From positions 40,206 through 104,205 of IMG/VR virus record IMGVR_UViG_3300045988_175722: 64,000 nt of DNA. The stretch is one strand, 5' to 3'. Each line of letters begins with the position of its first letter. The first letter of the stretch is position 1. Positions 13,384 through 40,376 of the stretch are shown here, piece by piece. The position numbers and the translations under genes were made by a program. This stretch comes from a virus. Under the pieces are notes generated by a model. That model was not told the origin of the DNA. It searched no databases and saw only the letters and a list, made by a program, of their open reading frames with translations.

Positions 13384-14154
13384 TTAAAATAGGCTAGGCT
13401 GCGCCATTTCGAGCTGAATACGCTTGCAAGCCTTGTCGTAATATTCTTTGTTCAGCTCAAAGCCGATGAAGTTCCTCTTTTCTCTGATGCAGGCGATTGC
13501 GGTAGTTCCGCTGCCCATGCAATTATCGAGAACGCACCCCCCCACATTAGTATAAGTACATATAAGATACTGGATAAGAGCTACTGGCTTTTGCGTAGGG
13601 TGGAAGGTATCGGCAGAATGTTCTTTATCAAAGCAGATAATGCTCTTTGGGAATTTTTCATCTGATACGATAGTAGGCACTTCTTTATGGTCTCCATAAC
13701 AGCCTCGCTTCAAACTATGCGAGCCATCTCCCCTTCGATGATTCCTTTGATGTGGCGCACATTTTACCATTTGAGGATTGTAGACAGGTTGTTTTCGATA
13801 AAATACAGCAATATCCTCATGTGAGCGCAGAGGCATCTTGTTGGCATTCAGAAAGCCTGTTACCCGTTGTTTGCTCCAAATAAGATTATATTTCCAGAGT
13901 TTCGGCTGCGACATCATAAGTTGTGCGGTAAACATACCTTGGCAGAAAAGGATAATGGCTGCATTGGGTTTGGTTATGCGCAGATATTCCTTCCATAATG
14001 GCTCAAGCGGGATAATGCTATCCCAGCCACCGCCCTCACTCTTTTTATTGAGAACGCCATACGGCAAATCGCAGATAATGCAATCCACGCTTGCGTCCGG
14101 AATCTTTTTCATTCCTACCAGGCAATCCTCATTATAAATCTTATTTAATTCCAT
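13384..14154 (-). CDS. DNA methyltransferase, N6-adenine/N4-cytosine class
   Basis: Motifs DLPYG (DPPY-type) and FHPTQKPVALIQYLI...VLDNCMGSGTT (AdoMet binding). A coding-strand G7 tract at 13537-13543 is in frame. Confidence 0.85.
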   Translation of the reverse strand: MELNKIYNEDCLVGMKKIPDASVDCIICDLPYGVLNKKSEGGGWDSIIPLEPLWKEYLRITKPNAAIILFCQGMFTAQLMMSQPKLWKYNLIWSKQRVTGFLNANKMPLRSHEDIAVFYRKQPVYNPQMVKCAPHQRNHRRGDGSHSLKRGCYGDHKEVPTIVSDEKFPKSIICFDKEHSADTFHPTQKPVALIQYLICTYTNVGGCVLDNCMGSGTTAIACIREKRNFIGFELNKEYYDKACKRIQLEMAQPSLF

Positions 14155-14174
14155 CCTCTATAAAACTGTTTTTA

Positions 14175-14772
14175 TCAATTAAACCATTTTAGAATAGTTT
14201 CTCCTTTATATCCTTTTTCCCAGATAAACCAGGCATAGGCTTGAGCGCTACCAGCCATTGCATCGAAATCGCCATTGGCAGCACATTTCAGTCGTGAACT
14301 GCTTACCCATACTCTGCATGGAGGCTGTGTTCTAAACAGATGCCTTCTTCCTTTCCCTTCAAGAAAAGTAAGTTTTAGAAACATAGCAACCTTTCTTCCT
14401 TTCGGAATAATCTGCAAAGCCTTTTCCACGAACTCTAACGCAAATCGGTATGGTGGATTGGTAACAATATCTCCATTCCATTCTATGTTGTCGATGGAAA
14501 GAAAATCTGCAACATCACCATAACCTCTATCTATCAAGTCACGGCTGACTACATCGTAGCCATGAGCCTTTAACACTTTGCTAATATGTCCTTCGCCGCA
14601 GGAAGGTTCCAAAATTACCCCCCCCCGTAAAATGCTCTATCTTACAGAGCCATTCGGTAGCTGCGGGTTCTGTGGCATAGTAGTCTTCTTTTTGGCGCTC
14701 ACCATTTTTGTGATTGCTAGCGCCCAAAGTCTTAAACACGGCAGCCTTGCCGCCTACCCAGTCTTTTGCCAT
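14175..14772 (-). CDS. N6-adenine DNA methyltransferase, interrupted by a frameshift at a G9 tract
   Basis: Track ORFs 14581..14772 (…YYATEPAATEWL…EHFTGGG) and 14175..14612 (EPSCGEGHI…TNPPY) are two halves of one MTase. They join as TGGVILEPSCGEG if the tract at 14618-14626 had 8 rather than 9 nt. Confidence 0.75.
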
Positions 14773-14805
14773 AAAGTCTATAAACTATTAACTATAAATT
14801 ATTAA

Positions 14806-15033
14806 CTATCTTAACTTTCCAATGTGCCATTTCGAGCACACCTTGCACTGATAAGCCGTATATCCTGCAGCCATGATTTTTTGGTGCAGCTTCAGAAACT
14901 CGCAGGCTTCATCTTCACTCTCGTAGGCAACCTTGGCTTTCCAGCCGTGACTGCTTTTCCTCGTCCAGTGTTCCGGATCAGGACGGAAGGGAGGTATCTT
15001 GTTGGGATGATGATTTCCGTATCGCTTACTCAT
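14806..15033 (-). CDS. small zinc-finger-like protein
   Basis: 75 aa with a C-terminal YQCKVCSKWH. Confidence 0.45.
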   Translation of the reverse strand: MSKRYGNHHPNKIPPFRPDPEHWTRKSSHGWKAKVAYESEDEACEFLKLHQKIMAAGYTAYQCKVCSKWHIGKLR

Positions 15034-15811
15034 CGGCTGGTTCCTCCTTCATTTCTTTAGCCTGCTGACCAGCCTCCTTCTCTTCCATCACCTCTTCCAT
15101 ATAGTCGAAGTAATCAGGAGCTTTTTCCGGAGTAGCATTCAGACTCTCCTCATCGGCTATCTGCTGCATATCCTTCACCGTAAGACCGTACTTGCGAGCC
15201 ATCTTGCGCTTATACTCATCGGTATAGTTGATGCGGTCGTGCTTCACGATGCTAACATCCTGCGTAATGGCAATGCGGCTCATATCCGGCATCTCATCCG
15301 TAGCATCCTTATCCTCCACGAAGTTGCCATATACATTAGCCAGGGCTTGCATACCCTTATCCACCGCTCGGTCGTTGTTCTGCTGTTTGCCGGTACGAAT
15401 CAGCCATTCAGCGCTGCTCAGATACATCGCCTTGTGACGAGGGCTTTCATCGGTCTGGAAGAAACGGATGATGTGGTTGCATACCGCCACATCATTATTC
15501 AGTTCCGTAACCGTTCGGGGTTTGATATTTCCTTCCTCGTCAATATCAATATGCAGCGCCATCACCATCTCCTGCGCCTCTTTGTTGCCCTGTCCTGCCT
15601 GGTTCACGAAGAGCGTATAATCGCGCCGTGCGATATTGCGGCAGGTGGTACGCGGGTCTATATCGTTGTTCTGCACCCATCGCTTGTAGAACTCGGCACA
15701 AATCTGCATGCGGTACCGCTGTTCCAGTTTGGGGAACATCGTCTCCATGCTGAGACCATTGGATAGCCACTTATCTATCCTCTGCAGGGTGTTTTGCGTT
15801 AATTGGCTCAT
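15026..15811 (-). CDS. hypothetical protein, first gene of the leftward operon
   Basis: 261 aa with an acidic C-terminus. Its position would suit a small terminase or DNA-binding protein, but no motif supports that. Confidence 0.5.
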   Translation of the reverse strand: MSQLTQNTLQRIDKWLSNGLSMETMFPKLEQRYRMQICAEFYKRWVQNNDIDPRTTCRNIARRDYTLFVNQAGQGNKEAQEMVMALHIDIDEEGNIKPRTVTELNNDVAVCNHIIRFFQTDESPRHKAMYLSSAEWLIRTGKQQNNDRAVDKGMQALANVYGNFVEDKDATDEMPDMSRIAITQDVSIVKHDRINYTDEYKRKMARKYGLTVKDMQQIADEESLNATPEKAPDYFDYMEEVMEEKEAGQQAKEMKEEPADE

Positions 15812-15851
15812 TTTGCTTTGCAGTGTTTAATGTTATTTTTATATCTGCCCA

Positions 15852-15888
15852 CAAAATTACGAAATCACCCCTAAATGATTGGGACAAG
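15852..15888 (-). promoter_or_regulatory. bipartite promoter P8 (leftward)
   Basis: On the minus strand: CTTGTCCC, then 25 nt, then TAATTTTG. Same architecture as seven + strand copies. Confidence 0.45.
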
Positions 15889-15896
15889 GGGGATGC

Positions 15897-15984
15897 AGTT
15901 GATAGTTGATAGTTTATAGTTAACAGCATCCTTGCTCAAAGGCGCTAGCTTCTATAAACTATAAACTGTAAACTATCAACTATA
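15897..15984. promoter_or_regulatory. operator-like inverted arrays of GATAGTT/TATAGTT heptamers
   Basis: The left arm is GATAGTT GATAGTT TATAGTT. The right arm is the reverse-complement array CTATAAACTATAAACTGTAAACTATCAACTAT. It lies between divergent promoters P8 and P2. Confidence 0.5.
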
Positions 15985-15986
15985 TT

Positions 15987-16023
15987 TTTGTCCCCGTCTT
16001 AGGGCAAAAATATTCTACCTTTG
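15987..16023 (+). promoter_or_regulatory. bipartite promoter P2
   Basis: TTTGTCCCC, then a 25-nt gap after the TTTG, then TACCTTTG. It lies 47 nt upstream of the ATG at 16070. Confidence 0.45.
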
Positions 16024-16069
16024 TATCGTATTAAAGACAACATAGGATAACATTAAAAAGAAAAAAGAA

Positions 16070-16696
16070 ATGCAAAGTTTAATTCCAACCCTTACCAGGT
16101 TTCTTGCAGCCATCATTGGCTTGTTGTGGTGTACACTGGAACCATCCCTTAACTACATCGCCGTATGCTTCTTCGCCCTTATCTGCGACTGCTACACGGC
16201 TTGGCGGTGCAACTGCCGCATCTATTCCCGCTATCGGGAGGCTATCAAGAAAGACCCTCGATGCAAAATCGACGGGAAACTGAAATCTAAGAAAATGGCA
16301 AAGATGGTGAAAGATTTCTCCGTCCTCATCCTTGCGATATTCTTGGCCACGATGGTAGATACCGTGATACTCGATTTTCAGAACCCTTTCCATCTCGCCA
16401 ACTATCTTGCTGCTATCTATTGTGGTGTGCAGCTCGTAAGTATTCTCGAAAACGAGAGTACCTGTAATGGGGCACCCTGGGCAAGAGTGATGCAGAAGAT
16501 TGTGGCCGATAAAACCGAAAGGCACTTCAACGTGAAGCTGAAAGACTTGATGAAGGAAGAAGAGGAGGACAGCGAGAAAGAAGAGGTAAAGGATAAAGGT
16601 AAGGCAGATACAGATAATGCAGCCAAGCCGGATAATGGTGCAGATAAAGATGAGTGGATTCCGTCGAAATTAGGTGGAGATGCTTATGATATATAG
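16070..16696 (+). CDS. holin-like membrane protein
   Basis: 208 aa with several TM segments. The QLVSILENES motif resembles phage holin family 4, and the tail is acidic. Confidence 0.5.
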   Translation: MQSLIPTLTRFLAAIIGLLWCTLEPSLNYIAVCFFALICDCYTAWRCNCRIYSRYREAIKKDPRCKIDGKLKSKKMAKMVKDFSVLILAIFLATMVDTVILDFQNPFHLANYLAAIYCGVQLVSILENESTCNGAPWARVMQKIVADKTERHFNVKLKDLMKEEEEDSEKEEVKDKGKADTDNAAKPDNGADKDEWIPSKLGGDAYDI

Positions 16697-16758
16697 TGCC
16701 AACAACTCTTAATTTCTGTACGCCATCAGTTAATAATGTGTTAAAATCCTTTTGAATT

Positions 16759-17361
16759 ATGACAATATCAAATGTTTTGGAACACTGGGCTACGATATAC
16801 AAGCCCTTATCCCATGACCCGACAAGCAAGAAGCTGGAGGATCAGAGTTTCTTTCGCATTCGTGATATTGATGAGGAAAATATCTTTTCCCGAAACGCCA
16901 ATATCATTCACTCTCCCTGTATGCTCTATCGTGTAGTTAACTCCGGAGAGCTAAAATCGGATAAGCAAGCCCTGATTACCTATCAGGTCTGCTTCCTTAC
17001 CCGACTGAAAGATTCCTCTGCTACGTTGGGCAGATATGATGGCAGCAAATTGCAGGCTGCATCGGATGATCTGATGGAGTATTGCGAAGACCTCGCCTCT
17101 TATCTCACTCAGCTTCGCCGCACGGGTATCTGTCCTATCACTGGCAGAAACTTCAAGACGGAAGAGCCTAAGTTGGGCATAGAGTTATCATCCGTCGATA
17201 TAGAGAGTTTTGCCTATGGTGTAAACCCTCTTTTCCGTGGTCCGAGCTGGCTCCTCGCTGATTGCTATTGGCAGACCATCCGTCCGCTCTATAACTTCCA
17301 ATGCGGGAAGGAGCAGAAATATATCATTCCTGCATCAACAGAAGACGGAAAGGAGGGATAA
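16759..17361 (+). CDS. hypothetical protein
   Basis: 200-aa ORF upstream of the tape measure gene. Confidence 0.5.
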   Translation: MTISNVLEHWATIYKPLSHDPTSKKLEDQSFFRIRDIDEENIFSRNANIIHSPCMLYRVVNSGELKSDKQALITYQVCFLTRLKDSSATLGRYDGSKLQAASDDLMEYCEDLASYLTQLRRTGICPITGRNFKTEEPKLGIELSSVDIESFAYGVNPLFRGPSWLLADCYWQTIRPLYNFQCGKEQKYIIPASTEDGKEG

Positions 17362-17364
17362 GCT

Positions 17365-17919
17365 ATGCCTATCAGAACCCAACCCATCAAGTCGCCTTTT
17401 GCCCCCTTAAAAGAGGTGGCAGGTGTATATCTGAAGCAAGCCCTTCTTGATATAGAAGTTAACTTCAATACCCAGAAGATTTATCCGGTAGAGGTATATC
17501 GTGGCTACGAGAAGGTGAATAAATATCGTGAGGAACACGGCATGTGGTACTCTACGGGTGAAGGCAAGAAATCCTTTGAGGGTACGGTATATCAGGCTGA
17601 TGAAAAGACGGGTAATCTGATGGTAGGAATCCGTTATAACGATTATCTCCGCTATGTGGATATTGGTGTAGGTTTGACGGGTGATCCTCGTGACCCTGCA
17701 GCCCATATCACTGCCGATAAGGTGGACCGCTCGAAAAAAGCCAAGTTCAAAACCCGCTATATCGGCAAGTGGGATAGAAGGGCAGGTAAATCTCACCGTC
17801 CTGCCATCATGCGAACCGTCCGCAGGTTGAAAACGAGATACGAAAACCATCTTGCCGATTACTACGGCTATCAAGGCTTGTTACAGATAATGAACGCCCT
17901 GGAAGACAAAGGCGATTAA
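17365..17919 (+). CDS. hypothetical protein
   Basis: 184-aa ORF upstream of the tape measure gene. Confidence 0.5.
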   Translation: MPIRTQPIKSPFAPLKEVAGVYLKQALLDIEVNFNTQKIYPVEVYRGYEKVNKYREEHGMWYSTGEGKKSFEGTVYQADEKTGNLMVGIRYNDYLRYVDIGVGLTGDPRDPAAHITADKVDRSKKAKFKTRYIGKWDRRAGKSHRPAIMRTVRRLKTRYENHLADYYGYQGLLQIMNALEDKGD

Positions 17920-17928
17920 CCCATCTCG

Positions 17929-17958
17929 CCCCCGTTCCCGGTGATTCCATCGCCGGTC
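17929..17958 (+). repeat. gene-boundary hairpin element copy 2
   Basis: The stem variant CCGGTGAT/ATCGCCGG has a compensatory A>G with T>C change plus a U-G wobble. It lies between the stop at 17919 and the TMP start. Confidence 0.85.
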
Positions 17959-17996
17959 TCATATCCCCCAAAAATAAACATTAAAAATAAAAAGCA

Positions 17997-20900
17997 ATGG
18001 CAAAGAATAAAACAGAGGCTATCATCACGCTCAATGGCCAGCAACCGCTCCAGGTACTGAAGCAGTTGCAGGAGGCTGCAGCGGGTATATCCGAGCAGAT
18101 AGATGCGGCTCAGGCGAAGCTGAAAAACCTGAAGCCGAACACTGATCCATATAAAACGCTCGATGCCACCATCAAGGATTTGAAGAAGCAGTATGATTTG
18201 CTGGCTTCTGCACAGATTAAGGATATAGCTGCCAATGAACGTTTGCAGAGTGTAGTGGACCAGCTTAGTAATACTTCTCTCCGCAATCTGCGCCGTGCAT
18301 TGGGCGATGGCAAGCGTCAGCTCGAAGGTTTGTCGGAGGCAGAGCTGGAGCAGGCTAATTCCATCCGTGCGATGATGAAGGAAGTAGGCGATGAGATACG
18401 TCTGCTCGAAGGTAAGTATGTGAAGATTAAAGAAGGATTGAAGGATGTTGATGAGCAATCCGACCAATGGCTCAGTAAGGCTCTTACTCAGCAGAGAGAA
18501 CTCGTTTCCTCTTTAAAAAAAACCGATGCCAGCTATCAGTCTAATCTTGACACATTGAAACAACTGGAGGCGGAGGAGGATAGGCGCAAAGGCAAGATGA
18601 GTGTTTGGGAGGCTACTGGCATCGTTAACAGAAAGCACGCATCTGCATCTGATTTGCGCAGGGCAAAGACAACCCTCACGGAAGCTAGGGATAATACTGA
18701 TTTATCTGATGAGAATAAGATTAATTCTTATAACGAAAGCCTTGCTACCATCGAAAAGCGTCTGGAGGCGGTTTCCGGTAAAGCTCAGAAGGCTTCTATG
18801 GATTCTATTACGCTCTTAAAAATTCTGAGTAACCCTAACGGACATCCTGCAGAAGATATTAAGGCGGCAATGGATGCTATTCAAAAGCAGATTCAAAAGT
18901 TGCCTGTAGGCTCACAGGAGGTGGCAAAACTCCGTCAGCAGTATGCTATGTTGGAGAAAGCCCTGAAAGGTACCTATCTTTCGCATAGTCAGCTTAATGA
19001 TGTTATCGAGAGAGGAAGAAGGGGGAAAGCTTCTATCAATGAGTTGAAACAGGCTTACAATCAGCTTTCCGAAGAGTTGAATCAGTTAAACACCAAAAGC
19101 AAGGAGTTTAACGAGAAACAAAAAGAGCTGAAGGATTTAAAAAAGAATATCGATAATGCTACCGGGTCAATAAGCCAGCAAAGTAAATCCTGGCAGACGG
19201 CAGTGAAGAACCTTACGGCATACGTGGGTCTCTTCCAGGTCTTCAATGCTATCAAAGATACAGTTACTTCTGCTATCAAGAAAAACTTTGAATATTCTTC
19301 GTCTTTGACGGATATTCGCAAGGTGTCCGGACTCACGATGCAGGATGTCAATAAACTGTCTGAGGAATTGGCTAAGATTGATACTCGTACTTCTGTTGAT
19401 GGTTTGGCTCAACTTGCCTACCAGGGTGCAAAACTTGGTATGGGTAAGTATGGCGTGGAAGGTATGAAGCAGTTCGTAGCTGCTGCAGACCAAATCAATG
19501 TAGCAATCGGTGAGGAGATGGGAGAGGAAGCGCTGCCGGCTCTGTCTAAGATGGTGGAGACGATGGGGCTTATCCCGAAGATGGGTATTGAAAAAGCGAT
19601 GCTTGCTACGGGTTCGGCTATGTTCAAACTGTCTTCTACCTCTACATCTACATCTACTAATATCGTAGAGTTTGCCAAGCGATTAACCGGTGTGAGCCGT
19701 ACTGCAGGTATCACTACCGACCAGTTGTTGGCTCTCGGTTCTGCATCCGATTCTCTCTTCCTGATGCCGGAGGTGAGTGCCACGGCGATGTCTAAGTTCA
19801 TCGTAGCTTTGCAGAAGAATCATAACCTTATCGAGAAGGATTTGGGCATTCAGCAGGGTACTATCAAGAATATGTATGCCGCTGGCCATGCCATGGATGC
19901 CATCGTTCTTGTATTGGAGAAGATGCGTGACAAGGGCAACATGAATGCTCTTGGTGAAATCTTTAAAGACCTTGGTTCTGACGGACAAAGACTTATTACT
20001 TCTATGGTAACTATGTCTAAGAACGTGGACGTACTGAAGGATCATCTCTATGAGTCTAAGGAGGCATTCGAGGAGGCAAGCGCTGTAACCAATGAGTACA
20101 AAATGCAGCAGCAGTCTGCTGCAGGTATATTGGATAGAGCCAACAACCTTTGGGAGAAGGCATTTGTCAACCCTGATGGCGTGGAGAGTGTAAAGGCTAT
20201 GGCACAGGCTTGGTACGATATGTCGCAGATGATCTTGCAAAGTCCGGTGTTCAAGAATACGCTTCAGGCAGCCCTGTGGAGCGTGATAACTGCTTGCAAG
20301 GTATTTATAACCCTTCTTCCTCTTATCGCCAACTATTTCGCTGCTCTGGGTATTTACAAAACCGTTTCGTTTCTTTGGGAATTAGGCAAGGCTTTAAAAG
20401 CTGCAGCAGCTGCGCAAACGTTGTTTAATTCAGCAGCCAAGGTAAATCCTTATGTAGCTATTGCAAGTGCGATTCTTACCGCCGTAGGAGTGGTATGGTC
20501 TTTTGCGGAAGCGAATAGAGAAGCTGCTGCTGCGGAAGCAGAGGCAACACGTAAAGCTAATTCCTGGAAAAAAACACTTAACGAGGCGGCAGTAGAAACG
20601 AGTAACCTTAACAAGAAACTCGATAATTATAAGCGAATGATGAATGAGGCGAACCTTTCGCAAAAGGAACGCCAAGGTCTCGTATCCAGATTCAATCGGG
20701 ATTTCCGCTCTTATATTGCTAATCTCGGTATAGAGATAAAGAATGTAAAAGACCTTCGTGACCATTATTCAGAGTTGGCACAGGAAGCGCAGAGGGCAAC
20801 TTATTACCGTATGCGTGAGAAAGCCAAACAGCAGGCTTTGCCGAAATTTGATTCCGACAGAAACGCAGCTTCAAACGTTTTGATGGAAAAGGTTCGTGGT

Positions 20901-26357: not shown

Positions 26358-26644
26358 ATGGCAAAAAGAAAAGTAGAAATCCCTAAAGGGTCATGGCTTG
26401 ACCAGAAAGGTCAACGTTGGGTAAAAGTAGTGTTCGATGTAATGTCCGGATTCGGGGGGGCAAAAAGTTCCTTCGTCAAATCACAATGACGTTCCCGGCA
26501 AATCTCGATATGGCTTTAGGCAAATACTTAATAGATATGGGCGATATGGATGATTTCAGAGACAGAATAAATCATCAATACCCATCATTGGAACACCTTA
26601 AAAATCTCACCTTTATCCCTACGGGAGACAAGGTTTTGAGATAG
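26358..26644 (+). CDS. hypothetical protein, split by a frameshift at a G7 tract
   Basis: The ATG at 26358 reads MAKRKVEIPKGSW…MSGFGG up to the tract at 26454-26460. With 8 G it continues as GKKFLRQITMTF… in the frame of track ORF 26417..26644. Confidence 0.4.
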
Positions 26645-26801: not shown

Positions 26802-27411
26802 ATGAAACAGAAGATTATCGCAATTATGGGTCCATCTGGAGCAGGCAAGGACACGGTGGCAAATATCCTTTCCGTCGCCCTGAACATTCCCTTGCTTTGT
26901 TCCTTCACCACCCGTCCCATGAGGGATGGCGAGGTAAATGGCAAGGAGCATTTTTTCGTGAGGGAGTGTAAGACTCCCAAGGAGGATATGCTTGCCTACA
27001 CCGAATATGGTGGCTACGAGTATTGGACGGAACTCGCCCAGGTAAAAGATACAGCCATCTATGTGATTGACGAAAGAGGATTTTCTGGGCATCTGCGAGC
27101 ATTTTCCGGATATTGAACTGATGAGCATTTATGTGGCTGCCAAGCCCGAAACGCTGAAGGCTCGCGGTATTGCTCCTGAAAGAACCAACCGTGATGAATA
27201 TCGTGTATCGCTGGATATTAACTCCTTCGATTACGTTATCAGCAATAATTCGTCACTCTATCGTTTGCTGACCACTACGCTGAATGTAAAAAAGTGCATT
27301 CAAGCTGCCAACGAAGAAACGTCGAAGTATGAAGCAGAGGTGGAAGAGAGACTGAAAAAAGGAGGATTGGTAGCAAAAAACTTAATCCGCATTCTCAGCT
27401 CCTTCCTTTAA
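26802..27411 (+). CDS. guanylate/dNMP kinase-like protein, frameshifted
   Basis: P-loop GPSGAGKDT and TTRPMRDGEVNGKEHFF are present. The frame changes near 27075-27085 (A3/T4 runs) and continues as FLGICEHFPDIELMSIYVAAKPETLKARG. Confidence 0.6.
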
Positions 27412-29562: not shown

Positions 29563-29593
29563 CCCCCGTTCCCAGCGATTCTATCGCTGGTCC
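29563..29593 (+). repeat. gene-boundary hairpin element copy 6
   Basis: The loop is TCT. It follows the stop at 29525. Confidence 0.85.
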
Positions 29594-29616
29594 CTCATTC
29601 ACAAACAAAGAAAAGT

Positions 29617-30348: not shown

Positions 30349-30422
30349 TTTTATATCTTATATAATAGGTGTTAATTTACAAGATAATAAACGTTAAATA
30401 ATTAATAAATCAAGGAAACAAT

Positions 30423-30911: not shown

Positions 30912-30993
30912 TCAGTTAAAAATAAAATGCCGGTTCTTAATTATTATAGATTCAAAGTATAAAATTGTTTTAGTTTAAGATTTGTGTATATAG

Positions 30994-31026
30994 CCCTGCC
31001 GTCCGTGAGGATAGCAGGGTTTTTTG
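30994..31026 (+). terminator. intrinsic terminator
   Basis: CCCTGC…GCAGGG hairpin followed by TTTTTTG. The same hairpin sequence recurs inverted at 63707-63734. Confidence 0.65.
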
Positions 31027-31067
31027 TTTTCCCCTAAATCATAGCAAATTCCACGCATAGGCTCATT

Positions 31068-31104
31068 TTTGTCCCTATTTACCCACGTTTTCCCATTACC
31101 TTTG
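31068..31104 (+). promoter_or_regulatory. bipartite promoter P3
   Basis: TTTGTCCC, then a 25-nt gap, then TACCTTTG. Upstream of the protease gene. Confidence 0.4.
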
Positions 31105-31208
31105 CCGTCAGAAAATATATAAGAGTCTTCTTTTGCAATCAAGGTAAGGAGATTTGTATTTCAGGATAACGATAACATACATTAATTTTTAAAATTCTAT
31201 TACCCACA

Positions 31209-32873: not shown

Positions 32874-32924
32874 TTTTTGAAATTTAAATCACATACATAA
32901 ACAAGCAAAATTTGTATTCTAATT

Positions 32925-34214: not shown

Positions 34215-34224
34215 CCCCCTCTCG

Positions 34225-34255
34225 CCCCCGTCCCCAGCGATTCCATCGCTGGTCC
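34225..34255 (+). repeat. gene-boundary hairpin element copy 7
   Basis: CCCCCTCTCGCCCCCGTCCCCAGCGATTCCATCGCTGGTCC, starting just after the capsid-candidate stop. Confidence 0.85.
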
Positions 34256-34361
34256 AACAGTCAAAAGGCAATCCTCTATAAATCCTCGGCGGCGGTCGCT
34301 TGACCTGGCGGAAAATGGCTTCCGCCGCCATTTCTTTTCATTTTAAAAATAAGATATAATT

Positions 34362-34931
34362 ATGGCAGATAACGTAACATGTCCACAGCTTGCGGACGTA
34401 TTGAACGAGAACGAGTGCCTGGAGAACCGTGCAGGTGTAGGTGTCACTGTCTATCTCGGTTTGAAGAGTGAGCTTGCAGCCCCTCTTACTGCTACCGAGA
34501 ATATGTACTCCACTCCTGCCTTCCAGACCGGCAAGGGTCTCTACAAAGTAGAGTGCAAAGACGATACCAACCAGGTTCAGGGTTCATCCCTCGGCTATCG
34601 CAAGGGTTTTGAGTTGACCTTCAACTTCGGTATCGACTCTGTAAATCCTGCAGCGGGTAAGTTGGCGCGCGCCATCAACAACCGCGACATCTTTATCATC
34701 GTCAAGGACAATGATAAGTCTCAGATTATGTACGACCCAGACCGCAAGGTTAAGTTTGACTCAGGTGGCATTAAAACGGACACGGGAGCCAAAAGCGACG
34801 ATGAACGCAGCACCACCTTCGAGGCAAAGTTGTCAAGCGTAAATTATCCAAACCTTTACGTAACAGAGCCTACAGAGAAGGGTTGGGATTCCCTTCTCGC
34901 TTCTGCGGCAACAAAGAAGCCGGGGGAATAA
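34362..34931 (+). CDS. structural protein, possibly a tail tube or head-associated protein
   Basis: 189 aa. The overlapping -1 frame stays open for 73 more codons beyond a G5 run at 34921-34925. Confidence 0.5.
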   Translation: MADNVTCPQLADVLNENECLENRAGVGVTVYLGLKSELAAPLTATENMYSTPAFQTGKGLYKVECKDDTNQVQGSSLGYRKGFELTFNFGIDSVNPAAGKLARAINNRDIFIIVKDNDKSQIMYDPDRKVKFDSGGIKTDTGAKSDDERSTTFEAKLSSVNYPNLYVTEPTEKGWDSLLASAATKKPGE

Positions 34932-35277
34932 CAGGCGGAACAGATCAGAGCGAAACCGCTTCCGCCTCTGAGCAGCCATCTGAGCCAAGCGAGCAGGTAA
35001 CTCCCACCCAGGAGTCTCCTGCCGCTATCAGCAAAGAAGATCAGACTCCTCCCGAGAATCAGCCTTCTGATGAAGAGCAGCCTTCTACTGAAGAGGAAGT
35101 CGCCCCTATCAAAAAGGTGGCTTCCTCTAGCAAAGGTGGTAAGTAATCGCTCCCCCATCAAACTCCAATGCGTTTCCATTGGCAATTTACTCTATAGATC
35201 AAGAGCCTGGCAGAAAGAAATTTCCTCGCCAGGCTTTTTCGCTTTGTTATCTTAAAAGAACCTCACCCCCTCTCTAG

Positions 35278-35308
35278 CCCCTGTACCCAGCGATTCCATC
35301 GCTGGTCC
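35278..35308 (+). repeat. gene-boundary hairpin element copy 8
   Basis: The 5' flank variant is CCCCTGTACCC. Promoter P4 follows. Confidence 0.8.
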
Positions 35309-35351
35309 CCATTCCCCTTTCTGCTAGGCACTAGAGTCCGCTAGGTATCTC

Positions 35352-35388
35352 TTTGTCCCCATCATCTTCTTAGCATTTGCTATCTTTG
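35352..35388 (+). promoter_or_regulatory. bipartite promoter P4
   Basis: TTTGTCCCC, then a 25-nt gap, then TATCTTTG. It lies 38 nt upstream of the endolysin ATG. Confidence 0.45.
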
Positions 35389-35425
35389 CCCTCAGAAGAA
35401 ATAAAAACGATAAAACAGAAAAGAT

Positions 35426-35980
35426 ATGGCAAAGATTCAACCTCTTGCAGATTTTATCCTCTCCTTCGAGGGAGGCTATGCGAACCACCCCAACGACAAG
35501 GGTGGTCCTACCAACATGGGTGTAACCCTCAAAACCTGGCAAACCCAGGGCTACGATAAAAACCATGATGGCCGCATAGACGCAAAGGATGTAAAGCTCA
35601 TCACAAAAAATGATGCCGTCTCCATCCTTCGCCGTTGCTATTGGAACCGCTGGAAAGCCGATGGCATCAAAGACCAGAGCATCGCCAACATCCTGGTAGA
35701 TTGGGTATGGATCAGCGGCACCCCAGGCGTAACCCTGGTGCAAGCCATGCTAGGCGTAAAAGCCGATGGCATTGTAGGCAGCAAAACTCTCAAGGCGCTC
35801 AATAACCAGAACCCTAAGCGGTTTTTCGAGCGCATCAAGGCACGCCGCAAGCAATACATCGCTAGAGTCATTGCCCAGTGCCCTAGTCAGAAGGGCTTCG
35901 AGGCAGGCTGGCTCCGTCGCCTCAATGCCATCAGTTACGGCAGTCTAATCGCCAACAATGGCAAAGAAATAAAGTGGTAA
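35426..35980 (+). CDS. endolysin: GH108 muramidase with a peptidoglycan-binding domain
   Basis: The N-terminal ILSFEGGYANHPNDKGGPTNMGVT is the GH108 signature. LGVKADGIVGSKTLKALN is a PG-binding motif. Confidence 0.85.
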   Translation: MAKIQPLADFILSFEGGYANHPNDKGGPTNMGVTLKTWQTQGYDKNHDGRIDAKDVKLITKNDAVSILRRCYWNRWKADGIKDQSIANILVDWVWISGTPGVTLVQAMLGVKADGIVGSKTLKALNNQNPKRFFERIKARRKQYIARVIAQCPSQKGFEAGWLRRLNAISYGSLIANNGKEIKW

Positions 35981-35981
35981 T

Positions 35982-37088
35982 ATGGAAGCAAAGATAAACC
36001 TCACCATCCCGAAAAGCTGGAATCAATGCACCCCCACCCAGCTAGAGCAGATTGCCCTCATCATGCTAGAGCAGATAGAGAAATCCAAGGTAGACCGCTA
36101 TCACCCCTTCGATATGCAGAAGGTGAAGATAGCTGTCTTCTTTCTCTTTGCCGGGATAAGCATCAACGCCTATCCCGACCCTCGCCAGCCTATCAATGAG
36201 CAGCACTACCTGGTAAGCATAGAGCCGCAGAAGAAGAGCCTCCTAAAGAAGCTCTTCTCCCTCTGCGCCTCCGTTCCCAGCGATTCCATCGCTGGTCCCC
36301 AGTCTTGCAGCCACTTCCCTCTCTATCTTTGGCAGCTCAACTATTGGCTTTCCCCGAAAGCCAAAACCAACGATAAAACCTCCCCCGAGTATATCTCCCA
36401 AGGCGCAGGTCTCCTCGATTGGCTGGATGCGGATAGCGGCAATTTTCTCACCCTTTTTCCCTATCCATCCATCAAGCAGAAATCCAAGTGGTACCATCGC
36501 AGCAAAGCCTTCCAGGGTCCGCACCCAGACCTCGATGGTTTCTCCTGGCAGCAGTACCGCTTCGCCAGCGATATGATGCAAACCTACACCAAGTTAAACA
36601 ATAACCTGGTTAAGATGAAGAAGATGGATAAATTCACCGAGGCGCAGTTGCATCAGCAAGCCGAGAGTGTGCGTAGTGCAAAAAGCATGTTCTTAGCCGT
36701 CATCTTTAACACCACTACGAATTACATCGACTCTACCACTGGCATAAAGAAATACGATTTCCACTATGAGGCAAAACAGCTCACTGCCCATGCCAAGTAT
36801 TTCGTCGATTTCTCCGAAGCCCAGTGGCAAGTAGTTTTATTCTGGTGGACGGGCATCATGCACACCCTGGCTCATCGCTACCCTCATGTGTTCAAGGTGC
36901 AGAAGGTAAACAACAGTAAGCCACAAACTCCGATGGAAATCTACACCGCTACCACCGCCACGATGCAGAAGTATGCCGGCTTAACAGAAGATCAGATCAA
37001 CACCCAATCCTATTCCTTGGTTCTAGAACACTTAGAAAGGTTATCGAAAGAGAATGAGGAAATGGAAAAGATGAGGAGAAGCAAATGA
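35982..37088 (+). CDS. hypothetical protein carrying an in-frame hairpin element
   Basis: 368-aa ORF. Element copy 9 at 36266-36297 is translated as CASVPSDSIAGPQ. Confidence 0.5.
   Translation: MEAKINLTIPKSWNQCTPTQLEQIALIMLEQIEKSKVDRYHPFDMQKVKIAVFFLFAGISINAYPDPRQPINEQHYLVSIEPQKKSLLKKLFSLCASVPSDSIAGPQSCSHFPLYLWQLNYWLSPKAKTNDKTSPEYISQGAGLLDWLDADSGNFLTLFPYPSIKQKSKWYHRSKAFQGPHPDLDGFSWQQYRFASDMMQTYTKLNNNLVKMKKMDKFTEAQLHQQAESVRSAKSMFLAVIFNTTTNYIDSTTGIKKYDFHYEAKQLTAHAKYFVDFSEAQWQVVLFWWTGIMHTLAHRYPHVFKVQKVNNSKPQTPMEIYTATTATMQKYAGLTEDQINTQSYSLVLEHLERLSKENEEMEKMRRSK
36266..36297 (+). repeat. gene-boundary hairpin element copy 9 (inside an ORF)
   Basis: GCCTCCGTTCCCAGCGATTCCATCGCTGGTCC lies within 35982..37088. 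Confidence 0.8.
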
Positions 37089-37231
37089 TAAAGATAGATT
37101 ATCATTTTCCGAATACGGGGGGGGTATTCACTCAATGTACAAAGGATTTCAATAATGGCCCCTTATGGAATTTGAGCCGTTGCGTCAAGGCAAGCGTTCT
37201 CGATACAGGCGTAATGCTAGAATATGAATAA
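37085..37231 (+). CDS. C5-MTase TRD-like mini-ORF 0a
   Basis: MIKIDYHFPNTGGVFTQCTKDFNNGPLWNLSRCVKASVLDTGVMLEYE. The ATG overlaps the upstream stop (ATGA). The G8 tract at 37117-37124 is in frame. Confidence 0.45.
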   Translation: MIKIDYHFPNTGGVFTQCTKDFNNGPLWNLSRCVKASVLDTGVMLEYE

Positions 37232-37352
37232 CCATCGCTTTTACCAATACCCACGAGGCGAGAATATGGGCGGTATTCTAGATACATCACTCTGCCTTAC
37301 CATCACTATTAATTCGTAGGAACAGAATGTGTTTCTAATAGAGGAATTATAA
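37224..37352 (+). pseudogene. TRD-like mini-ORF 0b with an in-frame TAG
   Basis: MNNHRFYQYPRGENMGGILDTSLCLTITINS, then TAG at 37317, then EQNVFLIEEL. The TAG sits where other cassettes carry the G tract. Confidence 0.3.
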
Positions 37353-37358
37353 AGATTT

Positions 37359-37667
37359 ATGAGTTATAGTACATTAAAAATAGAGAAGAATAAATTCAGA
37401 GAACACTCTGTATTTTTATCCCGTTCAACCGTAAGTGATACGGTTGTAATCAAGTGTGGTTCAGAAAGCGTGTGTCTTGAGCAAGACGAATTTAAAGCGC
37501 TGGCACATCTCATGTGCTATGATTTCTATACACGAGGTATGATCGAGAAAGCTCAAGAACATAGCCGGAATGATGTTCGTCCATACGATATATATTCTAC
37601 TACCGATATAGAAGGTTACGACGAGAAGATTAATTGGGATTTGGATGTAGAAAATAACAACAAATAG
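37359..37667 (+). CDS. hypothetical protein
   Basis: 102-aa ORF. Past its TAG the same frame reads HFQRTREFIEYD then stop, which is the cassette-type tail. Confidence 0.4.
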   Translation: MSYSTLKIEKNKFREHSVFLSRSTVSDTVVIKCGSESVCLEQDEFKALAHLMCYDFYTRGMIEKAQEHSRNDVRPYDIYSTTDIEGYDEKINWDLDVENNNK

Positions 37668-37727
37668 CATTTCCAAAGAACAAGAGAATTCATTGAGTAT
37701 GATTAAAGATTTATAGAGCAAAACAAA

Positions 37728-39029
37728 ATGATAACAAAATTCAATTTTAAGGATAAGACCATCAAGTCTTATGCCATCCGAAAGCTGACACCTTTCGAGT
37801 GTTTCCGACTGATGGGTGTTCGTGATAATGTGATACAAACCATGCAGAGCACCAATGCCCAGGCAGCCGAACGCATCGCCAACTACAAGGGCAAGGGCAA
37901 ACCTGAAGATATGGCAGTATCAGCCAGTCAGCAATACAAGCAGGCGGGTAACTCCATCGTGGTAGATGTGCTTGCAGCCATCTATCAGCAACTCTGGTAC
38001 CAGAAAGAACCAAAGCGTGAGGCACAGACCTCCCTCTTTGCCGATTTCTTCCCAGAAGACCAACTCCCTACCTATCCGGTAGATAAGAACGATGATGAGA
38101 AACTTATTCTTACCACCTTCTCCGGTTACGACTCGCAGTTGATGGCAGCCGATGTGCTCGCCCAGCAGCATCCTGATTTCCGCTGGACGTGCGTAGGCTG
38201 GAGCGATATAGATAAGTATGCCTGTCAGATGCACGACCTTATCTTTCCGCAGTTTTCCGACAAAGCCTTGGGCGATATAACCAAAATCGACTGGCAACAG
38301 GTAAAATCTAATACGGGGGGGCAAGAAATTGACCTCTTTACCTATTCTTCACCTTGTCAGGATATATCGCAAGCCGGCAAGCAGATGGGTCTGAAGGAAG
38401 GTTCCGATACCCGCTCTGCATTATTGTGGCGAGTAGTCGATGCCGTAGAGGTATTGCGGCCTAAATACCTGCTCCAAGAGAACGTAGCAGCCCTGGTAAG
38501 CAAGAAGTTTATGCCCGATTTTCAGAAGTGGCTTGATAAGCTCTCTTCTCTTGGCTACGTAAGCCGATGGGCACGCCTCAATGCCAAAGACTATGGTGTT
38601 CCGCAGAACCGCGACCGAGTTTTCTGCCTCTCAATGAGAAAAGATGTAGCCTTCGATTACCAGTTTCCCGACCCTATTCCGCTGAAGAGAAAGTTGGAAG
38701 ATGTGTTGCAGGAAGAAGTAGATACAAGGTTCTTCTTGAAAGATGAATCCGTCAGCAAGTTCCTCCAGGCAAACGATAAAGACACCTGTGTCTTCCATCA
38801 GTTTGAGATAGAGCCGAGCCACGAGAATGCCATGGCATTGAAAGCCATCCTTACCCTTTTCGTAGAGCAGTATGATTGCTGGAACCGCAAGCCTAAGAGA
38901 ATGCAGGAGCTACTTGTTTCTTCTCACGAGGATATTATCATGCCATTATTCAATGATTGGAAAGAGAACGGCAAGTTCCAAAATCCAAAGTTAGATAGTT
39001 TGTACCATCAGTTTTTGGAGAAGAAATGA
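37728..39029 (+). CDS. DNA (cytosine-5) methyltransferase core, circularly permuted (IX-X-I…VIII), with no TRD
   Basis: AIRKLTPFECFRLMG (IX) and QAGNSIVV (X) lie at the N-terminus. They are followed by FSGYDS (I), SPCQDIS (IV), QENV (VI) and QNRDRVF (VIII). The G7 tract at 38315-38321 is in frame. Confidence 0.85.
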   Translation: MITKFNFKDKTIKSYAIRKLTPFECFRLMGVRDNVIQTMQSTNAQAAERIANYKGKGKPEDMAVSASQQYKQAGNSIVVDVLAAIYQQLWYQKEPKREAQTSLFADFFPEDQLPTYPVDKNDDEKLILTTFSGYDSQLMAADVLAQQHPDFRWTCVGWSDIDKYACQMHDLIFPQFSDKALGDITKIDWQQVKSNTGGQEIDLFTYSSPCQDISQAGKQMGLKEGSDTRSALLWRVVDAVEVLRPKYLLQENVAALVSKKFMPDFQKWLDKLSSLGYVSRWARLNAKDYGVPQNRDRVFCLSMRKDVAFDYQFPDPIPLKRKLEDVLQEEVDTRFFLKDESVSKFLQANDKDTCVFHQFEIEPSHENAMALKAILTLFVEQYDCWNRKPKRMQELLVSSHEDIIMPLFNDWKENGKFQNPKLDSLYHQFLEKK

Positions 39030-39215
39030 TTTGCAGTTTAACCCATGTTGCGAAGCCTTCGCCTATGATTAGGGGGGGGGTATCAGCAGGTAGTAAACGT
39101 AACAGACGGAGAAAGCGCAGCCACCTTAACAACTCGCTATGAGTCGATAGGTCCTACCAACATTTTAACGCTTGCGCATTACCCTATGACAGTAGTGTTA
39201 TATGAATACGAATAA
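39026..39215 (+). CDS. TRD mini-ORF C1 (out of frame as sequenced)
   Basis: MICSLTHVAKPSPMIRGG, then a G9 tract at 39072-39080, then YQQVVNVTDGESAATLTTRYESIGPTNILTLAHYPMTVVLYEYE. It needs 8 G. As sequenced it stops at 39142. Confidence 0.45.
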
Positions 39216-39353
39216 TACGATAGACAAAATAGGCAACATTTACTTTAATGAATGGAAGCCCGGTTTTGATGGTAATATCTGTGGCGTGAAAGGTATATAC
39301 CCTACCATTACTCTATCCAACAATACGGGGGGGTACTGTTAGAGTATGCTTAA
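39202..39353 (+). CDS. TRD mini-ORF C2 (tail out of frame as sequenced)
   Basis: …IGNIYFNEWKPGFDGNICGVKGIYPTITLSNNTGG, then a G7 tract at 39327-39333, then VLLEYA. It needs 8 G. As sequenced it ends YC at 39342. Confidence 0.5.
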
Positions 39354-39513
39354 AAAGAACGCACGTCTGGAGCGTATGTATCAGCGCGGTTTCCGTCCAC
39401 ATCACGCCATGTGGATCGATACCTATAATAAGCAATATGGCAAAGATATTATCTATACTGTTTTAGCTGGTATCAGTAGTAGAAACCATTATTACGTAGC
39501 AGTAGAACTATGA
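39346..39513 (+). CDS. TRD mini-ORF C3 (intact, no tract)
   Basis: MLKKNARLERMYQRGFRPHHAMWIDTYNKQYGKDIIYTVLAGISSRNHYYVAVEL. The start lies inside the C2 tail and the stop overlaps the C4 ATG. Confidence 0.5.
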   Translation: MLKKNARLERMYQRGFRPHHAMWIDTYNKQYGKDIIYTVLAGISSRNHYYVAVEL

Positions 39514-39658
39514 ATAGTAATCGCCCGATCATCCTCGGCTCTTATAGCCCATCCCAAAACGGCATTATCGTTCACCCTAAAGGTATCGCCCTATGCCTTT
39601 GTGGGGGGGCAAAGGGCATGATGTAGATAAACCGAAAATATTATTAGAGTATGAATAA
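39510..39658 (+). CDS. TRD mini-ORF C4 (tail out of frame as sequenced)
   Basis: MNSNRPIILGSYSPSQNGIIVHPKGIALCLCGG, then a G7 tract at 39603-39609, then GKGHDVDKPKILLEYE. It needs 8 G. Confidence 0.5.
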
Positions 39659-39802
39659 GGTTATTCCTTTCGTAAAACGATTTAAGGAGCTATGCCCACG
39701 ATTAGATGGTTACTCTACAGCCTTGTCATCAAGGTACGATGGATGGGGGGGCTGTACGACAACCACGGGCAGCATACTATGTTATTGTTAGTATATGATT
39801 AA
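39651..39802 (+). CDS. TRD mini-ORF C5 (tail out of frame as sequenced)
   Basis: MNKVIPFVKRFKELCPRLDGYSTALSSRYDGWGG, then a G7 tract at 39745-39751, then LYDNHGQHTMLLLVYD. It needs 8 G. Confidence 0.45.
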
Positions 39803-39939
39803 ATTGATAACAATCAATACCCCCCCCCATAATCTGTGGTGCTATCACTGCTCATTATTTTAAGGATGGGGTATCGAATATCCTTCCAAATACAAACTCG
39901 CAGATAAAGGCTGCGGCAATATTAGCAGAGTATGAATAA
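39795..39939 (+). CDS. TRD mini-ORF C6 (out of frame as sequenced; C tract instead of G tract)
   Basis: MIKLITINTPP, then a C9 tract at 39820-39828, then IICGAITAHYFKDGVSNILPNTNSQIKAAAILAEYE. It needs 8 C. As sequenced it stops at 39833. Confidence 0.4.
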
Positions 39940-40033
39940 GGTTATAATAGATAAAGGTAGCATTCCTCCTTCTGAAGAGAAAGAGGATGATTCTAATGAT
40001 ATGCCGCCATTCGTATTGATAGAATATGATTAA
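39932..40033 (+). CDS. mini-ORF C7 (short, acidic, cassette-type ends)
   Basis: MNKVIIDKGSIPPSEEKEDDSNDMPPFVLIEYD. It shares the 19-nt junction AGAGTATGAATAAGGTTAT with the C4/C5 boundary. Confidence 0.4.
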   Translation: MNKVIIDKGSIPPSEEKEDDSNDMPPFVLIEYD

Positions 40034-40202
40034 GATATTAGCCATTCACGAGGCAAGAACAGAGCACGCCAAGGAAGTACGCAAGCAGACTGGTACCAAC
40101 GATTATCGGGATAAAGCCGTCTTCTTCCGTGATAGTCCTTTGATGCAGTGCATCGGTACTTTCTCCACAAAGGATAATCTTCTTGCCTTCAGATATGAAT
40201 AA
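40026..40202 (+). CDS. TRD mini-ORF C8 (intact)
   Basis: MIKILAIHEARTEHAKEVRKQTGTNDYRDKAVFFRDSPLMQCIGTFSTKDNLLAFRYE. Confidence 0.5.
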   Translation: MIKILAIHEARTEHAKEVRKQTGTNDYRDKAVFFRDSPLMQCIGTFSTKDNLLAFRYE

Positions 40203-40211
40203 AGAAAAGTT

Positions 40212-40376
40212 ATGAACGAAATACATCCGATAGTAGTAGGCTTGCTGAATACGCCTCCCTTTGACAAGCGCTTCGCCCAGATAAGGCGAGTGTTCGCTAT
40301 CCAAGGTCTAGCGCCTACTTGCGATACTTGTGGGGGGGGCGGTACTCAGCCCAAGATACTGGTGGAGTATGATTAG
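40212..40376 (+). CDS. TRD mini-ORF C9 (intact, G8 in frame)
   Basis: MNEIHPIVVGLLNTPPFDKRFAQIRRVFAIQGLAPTCDTCGGGGTQPKILVEYD. The G8 tract is at 40332-40339. Confidence 0.5.
   Translation: MNEIHPIVVGLLNTPPFDKRFAQIRRVFAIQGLAPTCDTCGGGGTQPKILVEYD

Follow-up and report, generated by a model that had tools for sequence, protein, structure and literature searches.

We analysed a stretch of 64,000 nucleotides of viral DNA (IMG/VR record IMGVR_UViG_3300045988_175722, positions 40,206 to 104,205; hereafter the window), identical to the European Nucleotide Archive (ENA) scaffold COST17-1_SAMEA4545385_METAG-scaffold_132 (104,194 bp), in which long G/C homopolymers are concentrated in genes for DNA methylation. 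The genes concerned are an N6/N4 DNA methyltransferase (MTase A), an adenine-type methyltransferase (MTase B), and the core of a C5 cytosine methyltransferase, which is flanked by mini-ORFs (ORF, open reading frame) of 33–62 residues that we refer to as cassettes. Eleven of these (C1–C11) lie downstream of the core, and one (0a) lies upstream together with a degenerate one (0b). Uninterrupted G/C mononucleotide repeats of seven to nine nucleotides occur eleven times inside ORFs of the window, and our comparison with related genomes suggests that they are probably hypermutable contingency tracts in functional modification genes. Below, tracts are written as base and length (G8), and a length that leaves the full ORF open is called ON, any other OFF.

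Homopolymeric tracts and reading frames

All eleven G/C runs of at least seven nucleotides had been listed in a first-pass annotation of the window, made from its letters and ORF translations, and the coordinates and lengths given there are correct; the frame states it assigned also hold on three-frame translation. Four tracts are in frame as assembled (those of MTase A, the core and cassettes 0a and C9), and at MTase B, a small ORF of 95 residues and cassettes C1, C2, C4, C5 and C6 a single-base change to a length of eight restores the full ORF. Relatives that have the in-frame length do encode that ORF, and a change in length switches an otherwise intact gene between a full-length and a truncated form. 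The in-frame length is eight because the codon pattern is NNG GGG GGG GNN, and seven where the following codon begins with C or T rather than G (N-T-G-G-Q in the core, N-V-G-G-C in MTase A). The tracts encode Gly-Gly as GGGGGG, except that of cassette C6, which encodes Pro-Pro. The only remaining G/C runs of at least six nucleotides in the window are a run of six C at 45490 and a run of six G at 48413.

The concentration of these tracts in methyltransferase genes is pronounced, as ten of the eleven fall within 4.5 kb of methyltransferase and cassette sequence that makes up 7.0% of the window (P = 2.9e-11). Matches to GGGGGGG number 19, against 4.65 ± 3.0 in dinucleotide-preserving shuffles, none of 100 of which reached 19. 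In the 39 long genes of the window GGG accounts for only 38 of 984 glycine codons (3.9%), and just two of 68 Gly-Gly pairs are written GGG-GGG, both being the tracts of MTase A and the core. In 80 related loci, fetched from among 133 confirmed IMG/VR relatives of the core (contigs mostly of 50–110 kb), tracts of at least seven nucleotides occur at 0.320 per kb near the methylase array and at 0.021 per kb in the flanking structural genes, a 15-fold difference. The tract pattern is not due to chance. A G-quadruplex or other structural role was rejected, and so was a replication-strand effect, because each tract is a lone run and keeps to the coding strand in + and − genes alike.

Table 1. Methylation genes, cassettes and other features of the window, with G/C runs given as base and length on the + strand and, where available, the pairwise ratio of nonsynonymous to synonymous substitution (dN/dS).
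Feature	Coordinates	Strand	Product and remarks	G/C run and frame	dN/dS
MTase A	13384–14154	−	N6/N4 DNA methyltransferase, 256 residues; PF01555, E 4.3e-31	C7, 13537–13543; in frame	
MTase B	14175–14772	−	Adenine-type methyltransferase; EPSCGEG and NPPY motifs	C9, 14618–14626; out of frame	
Small ORF	26358–26644	+	95 residues if G8	G7, 26454–26460; out of frame	
Kinase-like gene	26802–27411		P-loop kinase-like; split by T3 to T4 insertion near 27089		
Cassette 0a	37085–37231	+	TRD-like, 48 residues, ends LEYE	G8, 37117–37124; in frame	
Cassette 0b	37224–37349	+	Degenerate; in-frame TAG where relatives have Trp	no tract	
C5 core	37728–39029	+	C5 cytosine methyltransferase core, 433 residues; PF00145, E 1.7e-50, in two stretches	G7, 38315–38321; in frame	0.10
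Cassette C1	39026–39215	+	62 residues at G8	G9, 39072–39080; out of frame	0.11
Cassette C2	39202–39353	+	50 residues at G8; ...PTITLSNNTGGVLLEYA	G7, 39327–39333; out of frame	
Cassette C3	39346–39513	+	55 residues, ends VEL; intact	no long tract	
Cassette C4	39510–39658	+	49 residues at G8; ...GIALCLCGGGKGHDVDKPKILLEYE	G7, 39603–39609; out of frame	0.11
Cassette C5	39651–39802	+	50 residues at G8	G7, 39745–39751; out of frame	0.06
Cassette C6	39795–39939	+	47 residues at C8	C9 (coding strand), 39820–39828; out of frame	
Cassette C7	39932–40033	+	33 residues, acidic, ends IEYD; un-TRD-like	no tract	
Cassette C8	40026–40202	+	58 residues; ...CIGTFSTKDNLLAFRYE; intact	no tract	0.03
Cassette C9	40212–40376	+	54 residues; ...RRVFAIQGLAPTCDTCGGGGTQPKILVEYD	G8, 40332–40339; in frame	
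Cassette C10	40369–40551	+	60 residues, paralogue of C8; intact		0.05
Cassette C11	40533–40691	+	52 residues; ...GSISNAISSIAKDFMIIIEHR; intact here		
TRD, target-recognition domain.

The C5 methyltransferase core and its cassettes

All of the conserved C5 motifs I, IV, VI, VIII, IX and X are present in the core. Read from the N-terminus, 15 residues precede motif IX (RKLTPFE), followed by X (QAGNS), I (FSGYDS), IV (SSPCQD), VI (QENV) and VIII (QNRDR) and then by a tail predicted to be helical. In the usual C5 layout the target-recognition domain (TRD) lies between motifs VIII and IX of the same polypeptide, whereas after motif VIII the core holds only the pre-TRD segment and the helical tail, and the mini-ORFs beside it are the only place where TRD-like sequence occurs. 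As judged by its motifs, the core is circularly permuted and lacks a TRD. It is a common protein, with more than 7,900 close homologues in a public metagenome protein collection.

Every mini-ORF begins with an ATG that overlaps the preceding stop, and in most of them the C-terminus is hydrophobic and closes with E-Y-(E/D); the overlap and this ending both stem from a junction repeat, GAGTATGAWTAAG. The start of cassette C1 overlaps the stop of the core, and cassette 0a, for which the source assembly calls a gene of 48 residues, likewise starts on the stop codon of its upstream neighbour (ATGA). Within 39026–40691 the overlaps take the form ATGA or GAGTATGAWTAA. Such overlapping stops and starts imply translational coupling, and an OFF cassette might lower translation of the cassettes downstream of it. 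The possibility of +1 frameshifting at the EYE-stop junction was rejected, as the P-site codon cannot re-pair. Each unit keeps its own ATG and stop across the 80 loci, including relatives in which the core is only ~70% identical. Directly after the array and before a portal-like gene lie three copies of a palindrome, GCGGATTTGAAATCCGC (40694–40856), two of which form a 32-nt inverted repeat; the copies may act as terminators or have some other regulatory role.

Scanned singly against Pfam and PHROG, the cassettes had no meaningful match, and their identity was therefore taken from an exhaustive HMMER search and a chimera alignment. TRD hallmarks (PTITLS..TGG, GIALCLCGGGKG, GLAPTCDTCGGGG) can be read in most of the mini-ORFs, and about half of the mini-genes carry a tract over the conserved Gly-Gly of the TRD. 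When cassette C9 was searched against 1.84 billion cluster representatives, 123 matched at E ≤ 1e-3. Among these are PF00145 methylases of 485–600 residues with two to five C9-like units between motifs VIII and IX, proteins of 220–300 residues in which C9-like units are followed by motifs IX–X, and dozens of free-standing proteins of 43–125 residues in dozens of 50%-identity clusters. A de-permuted chimera (motifs I–VIII, then cassette C9, then IX–X) aligns unbroken to M.MpeI and M.HhaI, through the TRD, with 'RRVFAIQGLAPTCDTCGGGG' of cassette C9 placed over 'ERIYSTRGIAITLSAYGGG' of M.HhaI. These results indicate that most of the mini-genes encode a single TRD, with homology to those arranged in tandem in multispecific C5 methyltransferases. 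With a TRD-less core and separately encoded TRDs, the locus thus resembles a multispecific C5 methylase taken apart, and because the units are adjacent to a core that has no TRD of its own, it is this core that they would serve. The units that the first-pass annotation had called cassettes can be described more specifically as separate TRD mini-genes for a TRD-less core.

One metagenome protein, P0091, is a natural fusion in which a frameshift in the tail of the core joins its C-terminus to a TRD of C4 type; a core–TRD fusion was found in 1 of the 120 best core homologues. An AlphaFold2 model of P0091 from a 25-sequence alignment had a mean predicted local distance difference test score (pLDDT) of 57.6, with the TRD below 30, and is too poor for docking to be interpreted. 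Tracts that bear on fusion were also seen next to the core of other relatives: in L071 (5960) a G7/G8 tract lies 40 nt before the core start and could fuse an upstream cassette to the core N-terminus, and in L070 and L072 (7347) a tract is placed so that gain or loss of one base would make a cassette and the core a single ORF.

A frameshift-tolerant census of 81 loci recovered 665 cassettes in 33 similarity groups, 22 of which have at least three members, and ~22% of the cassettes need a one-base tract correction, that is, they are OFF in the consensus. A genome has ~12 TRD mini-genes, and no fewer than 22 families recur across the clade. The cassette 0a family has 47 copies in 40 loci, 18 of them requiring a one-base fix; the family of cassette 0b (...CPTLTINSWQQNVFLIEEYE) occurs in 42 loci; and cassette C7, in 18 loci, never requires a fix. 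The in-frame TAG of cassette 0b shows that cassettes decay by ordinary mutation too. The array is mosaic, with blocks present or absent precisely at the junction repeats. Cassettes C5 and C6, for example, lie between 28-nt direct repeats that are 93% identical (39637–39664 and 39918–39945), and many relatives lack exactly the sequence between the repeats, so that cassettes are gained and lost by recombination at the junction repeats. Of 19 contigs carrying cassette C9, 14 are shorter than 2 kb. Megablast comparison of the array and of the MTase A/B region with 50,697 phage records of GenBank gave no match.

Pairwise dN/dS, calculated on ON-length frames, is 0.03–0.20 for cassettes C1, C3, C4, C5, C8, C9 and C10, with 0.10 for the core, which shows purifying selection on the mini-genes. 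In OFF alleles one base is all that separates the sequence from the full ORF, and there is no second lesion. Together with the low dN/dS, this requires either a frequent return to ON or a very recent loss in many lineages independently.

Tract lengths among related genomes

The first-pass annotation had proposed that orthologous sites be compared between genomes, and in the relatives these sites do vary, spanning 6–12 nt. Calling ON and OFF states from the longest ORF through a tract is noisy for genes of 50 residues, since alternative frames run into neighbouring genes, and we therefore relied on orthologous groups and single-site tables. One upstream cassette has tracts of six nucleotides in four relatives, seven in four, eight in twelve, nine in two and eleven in one; the tract of cassette C4 has seven in six and eight in three. 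For cassette C1 the relatives have G8 (four) or G9 (one, plus the window), and for cassette C5 the orthologues have G6, G7 and G9, with G8 in L222. The C tract of cassette C6 is nine long in L019, eight in L203, L204, L206 and L222, and seven in L231. Cassette C2 has an intact homologue in L022. Two cassettes that are intact in the window have tracts in relatives: G7–G9 at the GGG site of cassette C3 (L004, L009 and L018), and G7–G10 at the IGG site of cassette C11, where the group with the flank 'ggttagaaatc' has lengths of 7, 8 and 9. At cassette C9 the tract is G7 in three relatives, besides a G9 in the sibling sample introduced below. With G7 the frame of cassette C9 continues into cassette C10 to give a fused ORF of 112 residues, which is the assembled state in several relatives (L004, L009); the G7 state is probably simply OFF for cassette C9, a fused C9–C10 product being the alternative.

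The same behaviour is seen away from the array. MTase A has an in-frame G7 in 21 relatives and an out-of-frame G6, G8 or G9 in seven. MTase B, once corrected to G8, is a 198-residue protein that matches phrog_799 'DNA methyltransferase' (E 2.8e-67). In relatives at least 90% identical its tract is G6, G7, G8, G9 or G11, about half being out of frame; G8 and G11 give 198 residues, and the other lengths give truncated proteins that are nevertheless 90–99% identical across residues 1–198. The 95-residue ORF has no match in Pfam or PHROG. Its run is interrupted in 17 relatives (16 of GGGGGTG type and one GGGGGGTG), none of which is frameshifted at the tract, while the 25 relatives with an uninterrupted G7–G10 run divide into 11 in frame and 14 out of frame. 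The Gly-Gly-Gly site of cassette C4 gives a similar picture in 73 genomes: where the longest run is at most five, 58 are in frame and one is out, and where it is at least six, four are in frame and ten are out (P = 1.7e-8). Frameshifts in these genes occur almost only at uninterrupted runs. Around MTase A and MTase B, relatives (loci L087, L091, L104 and L106) have two further poly-G genes that are absent from the window, one encoding a PAPS-reductase-domain protein (PF01507, 283 residues, in frame at G7) and the other a Dam-like D12 methylase (PF02086) with two G6–G10 tracts in a low-complexity linker.

Near-identical genomes, which give the most direct evidence, also differ at their tracts. 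A literature search for the accessions SAMEA4545385 and SAMEA4545384 returned nothing, and the latter is called the sibling sample here as the neighbouring one, whether or not stool or donor is shared. Two scaffolds from the sibling sample have no substitutions relative to the window over 5.4 kb and 6.9 kb (12.3 kb in total), and four of the six shared tracts differ in length: cassettes C1, C2 and C4 have G8 in the sibling (G9, G7 and G7 in the window) and cassette C9 has G9 (G8 in the window). Cassette 0a (G8) and the core (G7) are the same in both. Cassette C2 of the sibling additionally carries a 17-nt deletion, and the sibling assembly breaks between ~39685 and 39975. As the OFF tracts lie in different genes in the window and the sibling, neither assembly is simply the error-free one. 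Five assemblies from different samples that share an identical core protein and differ by 0–14 substitutions are likewise different at three of five tracts (G12/G8/G7/G7, G8/G8/G9/G9 and G10/G9/G10), with G7 in the core of all five. The difference reaches 5 nt (G12 vs G7) between contigs with no substitutions, one of them at 205x coverage. Contig names of SPAdes and MEGAHIT type suggest that these are short-read assemblies.

The core tract, in contrast to those of the other tract genes, appears to be under selection to stay ON: its G7 is in frame in 23 of 23 IMG/VR relatives, against 22 of 29 for MTase A (P = 0.013), and it therefore serves as an internal control against miscalls. Two slips of the core tract were found. 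In L224 (a Logan assembly; position 219) it is G8 and the core is split and OFF, and in L222 (a SPAdes contig; 109–140) it is also G8, but the loss of one base 15 nt further on compensates for the slip, restoring the frame and rewriting five residues (GGQEIDLF to GGARNRPL). A +1 slip rescued by a nearby deletion is a biological suppressor and not a pattern of sequencing.

Interpretation and relation to known systems

The first-pass annotation had read the tracts as slipped-strand switches, and our comparison between genomes supports this: lengths vary, near-identical genomes differ at their tracts, and OFF genes are otherwise intact. It had also described two outcomes that would leave no switch. 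A clonal, invariant length of eight is contradicted by the variation among assemblies, and tracts fixed at OFF values, as in simple pseudogenes, by the ON lengths found in relatives.

Several observations weigh against the view that the tracts are contingency loci. The frame shift outside the tracts that the annotation had noticed in the kinase-like gene is present, and is the only non-tract frameshift found in the window; almost all of 42 relatives have the gene as one ORF of 190–203 residues, and the five that were aligned lack the extra T. The insertion could be either a real mutation or an assembly error, so some assembly error is possible and the individual tract lengths of the window are not beyond doubt. 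IMG/VR pairs at least 99.5% identical share tract length in 12 of 12 comparisons, which indicates that the consensus states are heritable and that switching is not fast enough to randomise each sample. A/T runs of 7–8 vary too, in 9–23% as compared with 36–48% for G/C, and part of the effect is thus general homopolymer instability. Gly-Gly-Gly of cassette C4 is encoded without a long run in 59 of 73 genomes, so that the tract is not required for TRD function and could have arisen repeatedly by mutational accident instead of being selected. Finally, switching is judged here from assembled consensus lengths; for rapid, reversible switching inside a clonal population the hints are indirect, namely the differences from the sibling sample and the break of its assembly within the array.

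The caveat raised in the first-pass annotation was that every tract is truly in frame and that errors of sequencing or assembly account for the OFF states. It is a fair caution for any single tract length in this assembly, and as an account of the phenomenon overall it is very unlikely. The broken kinase-like gene, the variation of A/T homopolymers between assemblies and the G8 of cassettes C1, C2 and C4 in the sibling are what miscalling would lead one to expect; yet the sibling has its own OFF tract (G9 in cassette C9) where the window is ON, so that neither assembly is 'all 8', and errors of 5 nt would be needed between contigs without substitutions, one of them deeply covered and all apparently built from short reads. 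Random error would not yield the 12/12 agreement of close pairs, nor does it fit a core G7 in frame in every relative while the G7 site of MTase A is out of frame in 7 of 29, the compensating deletion beside the core slip, which is a biological signature, or the in-frame A8 runs within ORFs of 2091 and 954 residues in the window. A different possibility is that the tracts are real mutational hot spots but no adaptive switch, arising by chance or from G-rich codon usage, and that the OFF alleles are neutral or mildly deleterious losses of dispensable genes. Tracts recur in at least eight gene families of the modification module but hardly occur in the >50 kb that other genes occupy, GGG-GGG is used despite a 3.9% codon preference for GGG, and OFF alleles lack secondary lesions and have dN/dS of 0.03–0.20. 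These observations make mere hot spots an unlikely explanation, although the interrupted Gly-Gly-Gly run with which most genomes keep cassette C4 ON, the nonsense change that inactivates cassette 0b, the gain and loss of cassettes between relatives and the ~22% of recognisable cassettes that are OFF in the consensus would all agree with it.

Runs of seven to nine identical bases can support RNA-polymerase slippage, and OFF tracts could in principle be read through by transcriptional slippage or ribosomal frameshifting, with protein made at any DNA length. This general knowledge is all that favours such recoding, and no result of our analysis does so; the DNA length varies in both directions around the in-frame value with no conserved 'off' length, the alternative frames yield no conserved product, and we regard programmed recoding as the least probable of the alternatives, extremely unlikely to be correct. 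The architecture of the locus permits another interpretation, in which the cassettes are silent donors that are recombined or fused into the core, or are remnants of a fragmented multispecific methylase, and the tracts act on the fusions. The direct repeats at cassette junctions that coincide with breakpoints of gain and loss, the natural fusion P0091 and the tracts of L071, L070 and L072 at which a one-base change would join a cassette to the core are in keeping with this interpretation. It is nonetheless improbable, if slightly less easily dismissed than miscalls, given that every cassette has kept its own overlapping ATG and its own stop even where the core has diverged to ~70% identity, that purifying selection extends along the whole cassette length, that fusions are as rare as 1 in 120 and that free-standing homologues of 43–125 residues fill dozens of clusters.

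The most reasonable explanation remains that these are contingency tracts in functional modification genes. Slippage in phage DNA replication would then add or remove a G and move a gene between its ON and OFF lengths. The core is kept ON, its own tract perhaps being a rarely used master switch, and each TRD peptide might dock on the core in trans and confer one sequence specificity, with each tract toggling one specificity independently; separate tracts would toggle MTase A, MTase B and the 95-residue protein. Eleven tracts, concentrated in methyltransferase genes and a multi-member TRD array, allow combinatorial states, and a phage population would be a mixture of methylation patterns. Selection among these patterns may come from host restriction, which favours methylation, and from methyl-dependent type IV systems, which penalise it, so that the mixture would amount to bet-hedging. 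Competition of many TRDs for one core could matter too. We give the action of the TRD subunits on the core in trans an even chance. More tentatively, and with slightly less than even confidence, we propose that free TRD mini-proteins of ~5–12 kDa, many of them individually phase-variable, make up a library that programmes a TRD-less core, with 2^N methylation patterns serving as a bet-hedge.

If the tracts are contingency loci, then phage contingency loci, so far shown in receptor-binding genes and in agt and rIIA of T-even phages, would extend to DNA methyltransferases. They belong to an abundant, very common human-gut phage of ~100 kb, and suggest population-level counter-defence that is tuned by epigenetic marking through many independent switches. 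Should the TRDs act in trans, the locus would represent a new way to build a multispecific C5 methylase and a natural toolkit of swappable 50-residue specificity modules. There are practical consequences as well: the tracts and junction repeats fragment metagenome assemblies here, the methylase genes get annotated as pseudogenes, and host linking by methylation could vary between samples for this phage.

Bacterial phasevarions, as in Haemophilus, Neisseria, Helicobacter and Moraxella, are repeat-slippage switches in DNA methyltransferase genes (e.g. PMC6902483, PMC5149525). The likeness to them drawn in the first-pass annotation holds for the switch mechanism, as in both cases the repeat lies inside a methyltransferase ORF, slippage by one unit toggles the frame and lengths are polymorphic among close relatives. 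It does not hold for the type of gene. Here the genes are orphan C5 and N6/N4 methylases of a virulent-type phage, from families PF00145 and PF01555, rather than type III or type I mod subunits or the hsdM/hsdS genes of restriction-modification systems, and no res or hsdR gene is adjacent. Many of the tracts are in recognition-domain mini-genes rather than in the catalytic gene, no regulon is implied, and selection probably bears on host restriction and not on gene regulation.

Among phages, poly-G tracts lie in receptor-binding genes of Campylobacter Fletchervirus (Sorensen et al. 2021, Cell Rep 35:109214, as cited in PMC12823448). A-runs in T2 agt and T4 rIIA are contingency loci, that in agt, a DNA-glucosylation gene, toggling between sensitivity to McrBC and to TgvAB, and phage BPP-1 is mentioned in passing as having a poly-G tract in a 'thymine methylase gene' (bioRxiv 10.1101/2025.10.21.683753). 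As in the Fletchervirus and T-even loci, hypermutable homopolymers in phage coding sequence would here produce ON and OFF subpopulations, to judge from the assemblies. The closest in function is T2 agt, a DNA-modification gene whose loss and regain trades off two restriction systems. Unlike these phages, which have one or a few tracts, the window has 11 per genome, concentrated in methyltransferases and a multi-member TRD array. In a full-text literature search we found no description of a phage with many tracts concentrated in its methylases, and none of TRDs as separate mini-genes beside a TRD-less core or of their combination with tracts.

In the multispecific C5 methyltransferases of Bacillus phages (M.SPRI, M.Phi3TI, M.H2I and M.Rho11sI, from the Trautner laboratory) one catalytic framework carries several TRDs of ~40–60 residues, each of which confers its own specificity. 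Cassette C9 is homologous to units found two to five times in tandem in PF00145 proteins, which is the resemblance to these enzymes. Their TRDs, however, follow one another within a single chain, from motif VIII to motif IX, whereas the TRDs of the window are separate ORFs beside a permuted core, and many of them carry a slippery tract. Natural split or permuted C5 methyltransferases are also known (M.AquI alpha/beta, M.BssHII and M.Alw26I, among others), and in the type H permutants the order is TRD-IX-X-I..VIII, with the TRD first (PMC5944983). The core of the window begins at motif IX without a TRD and so differs from type H (the M.BssHII group). M.AquI, for its part, consists of two fixed subunits, whereas here one core would be combined with a library of interchangeable TRD peptides.

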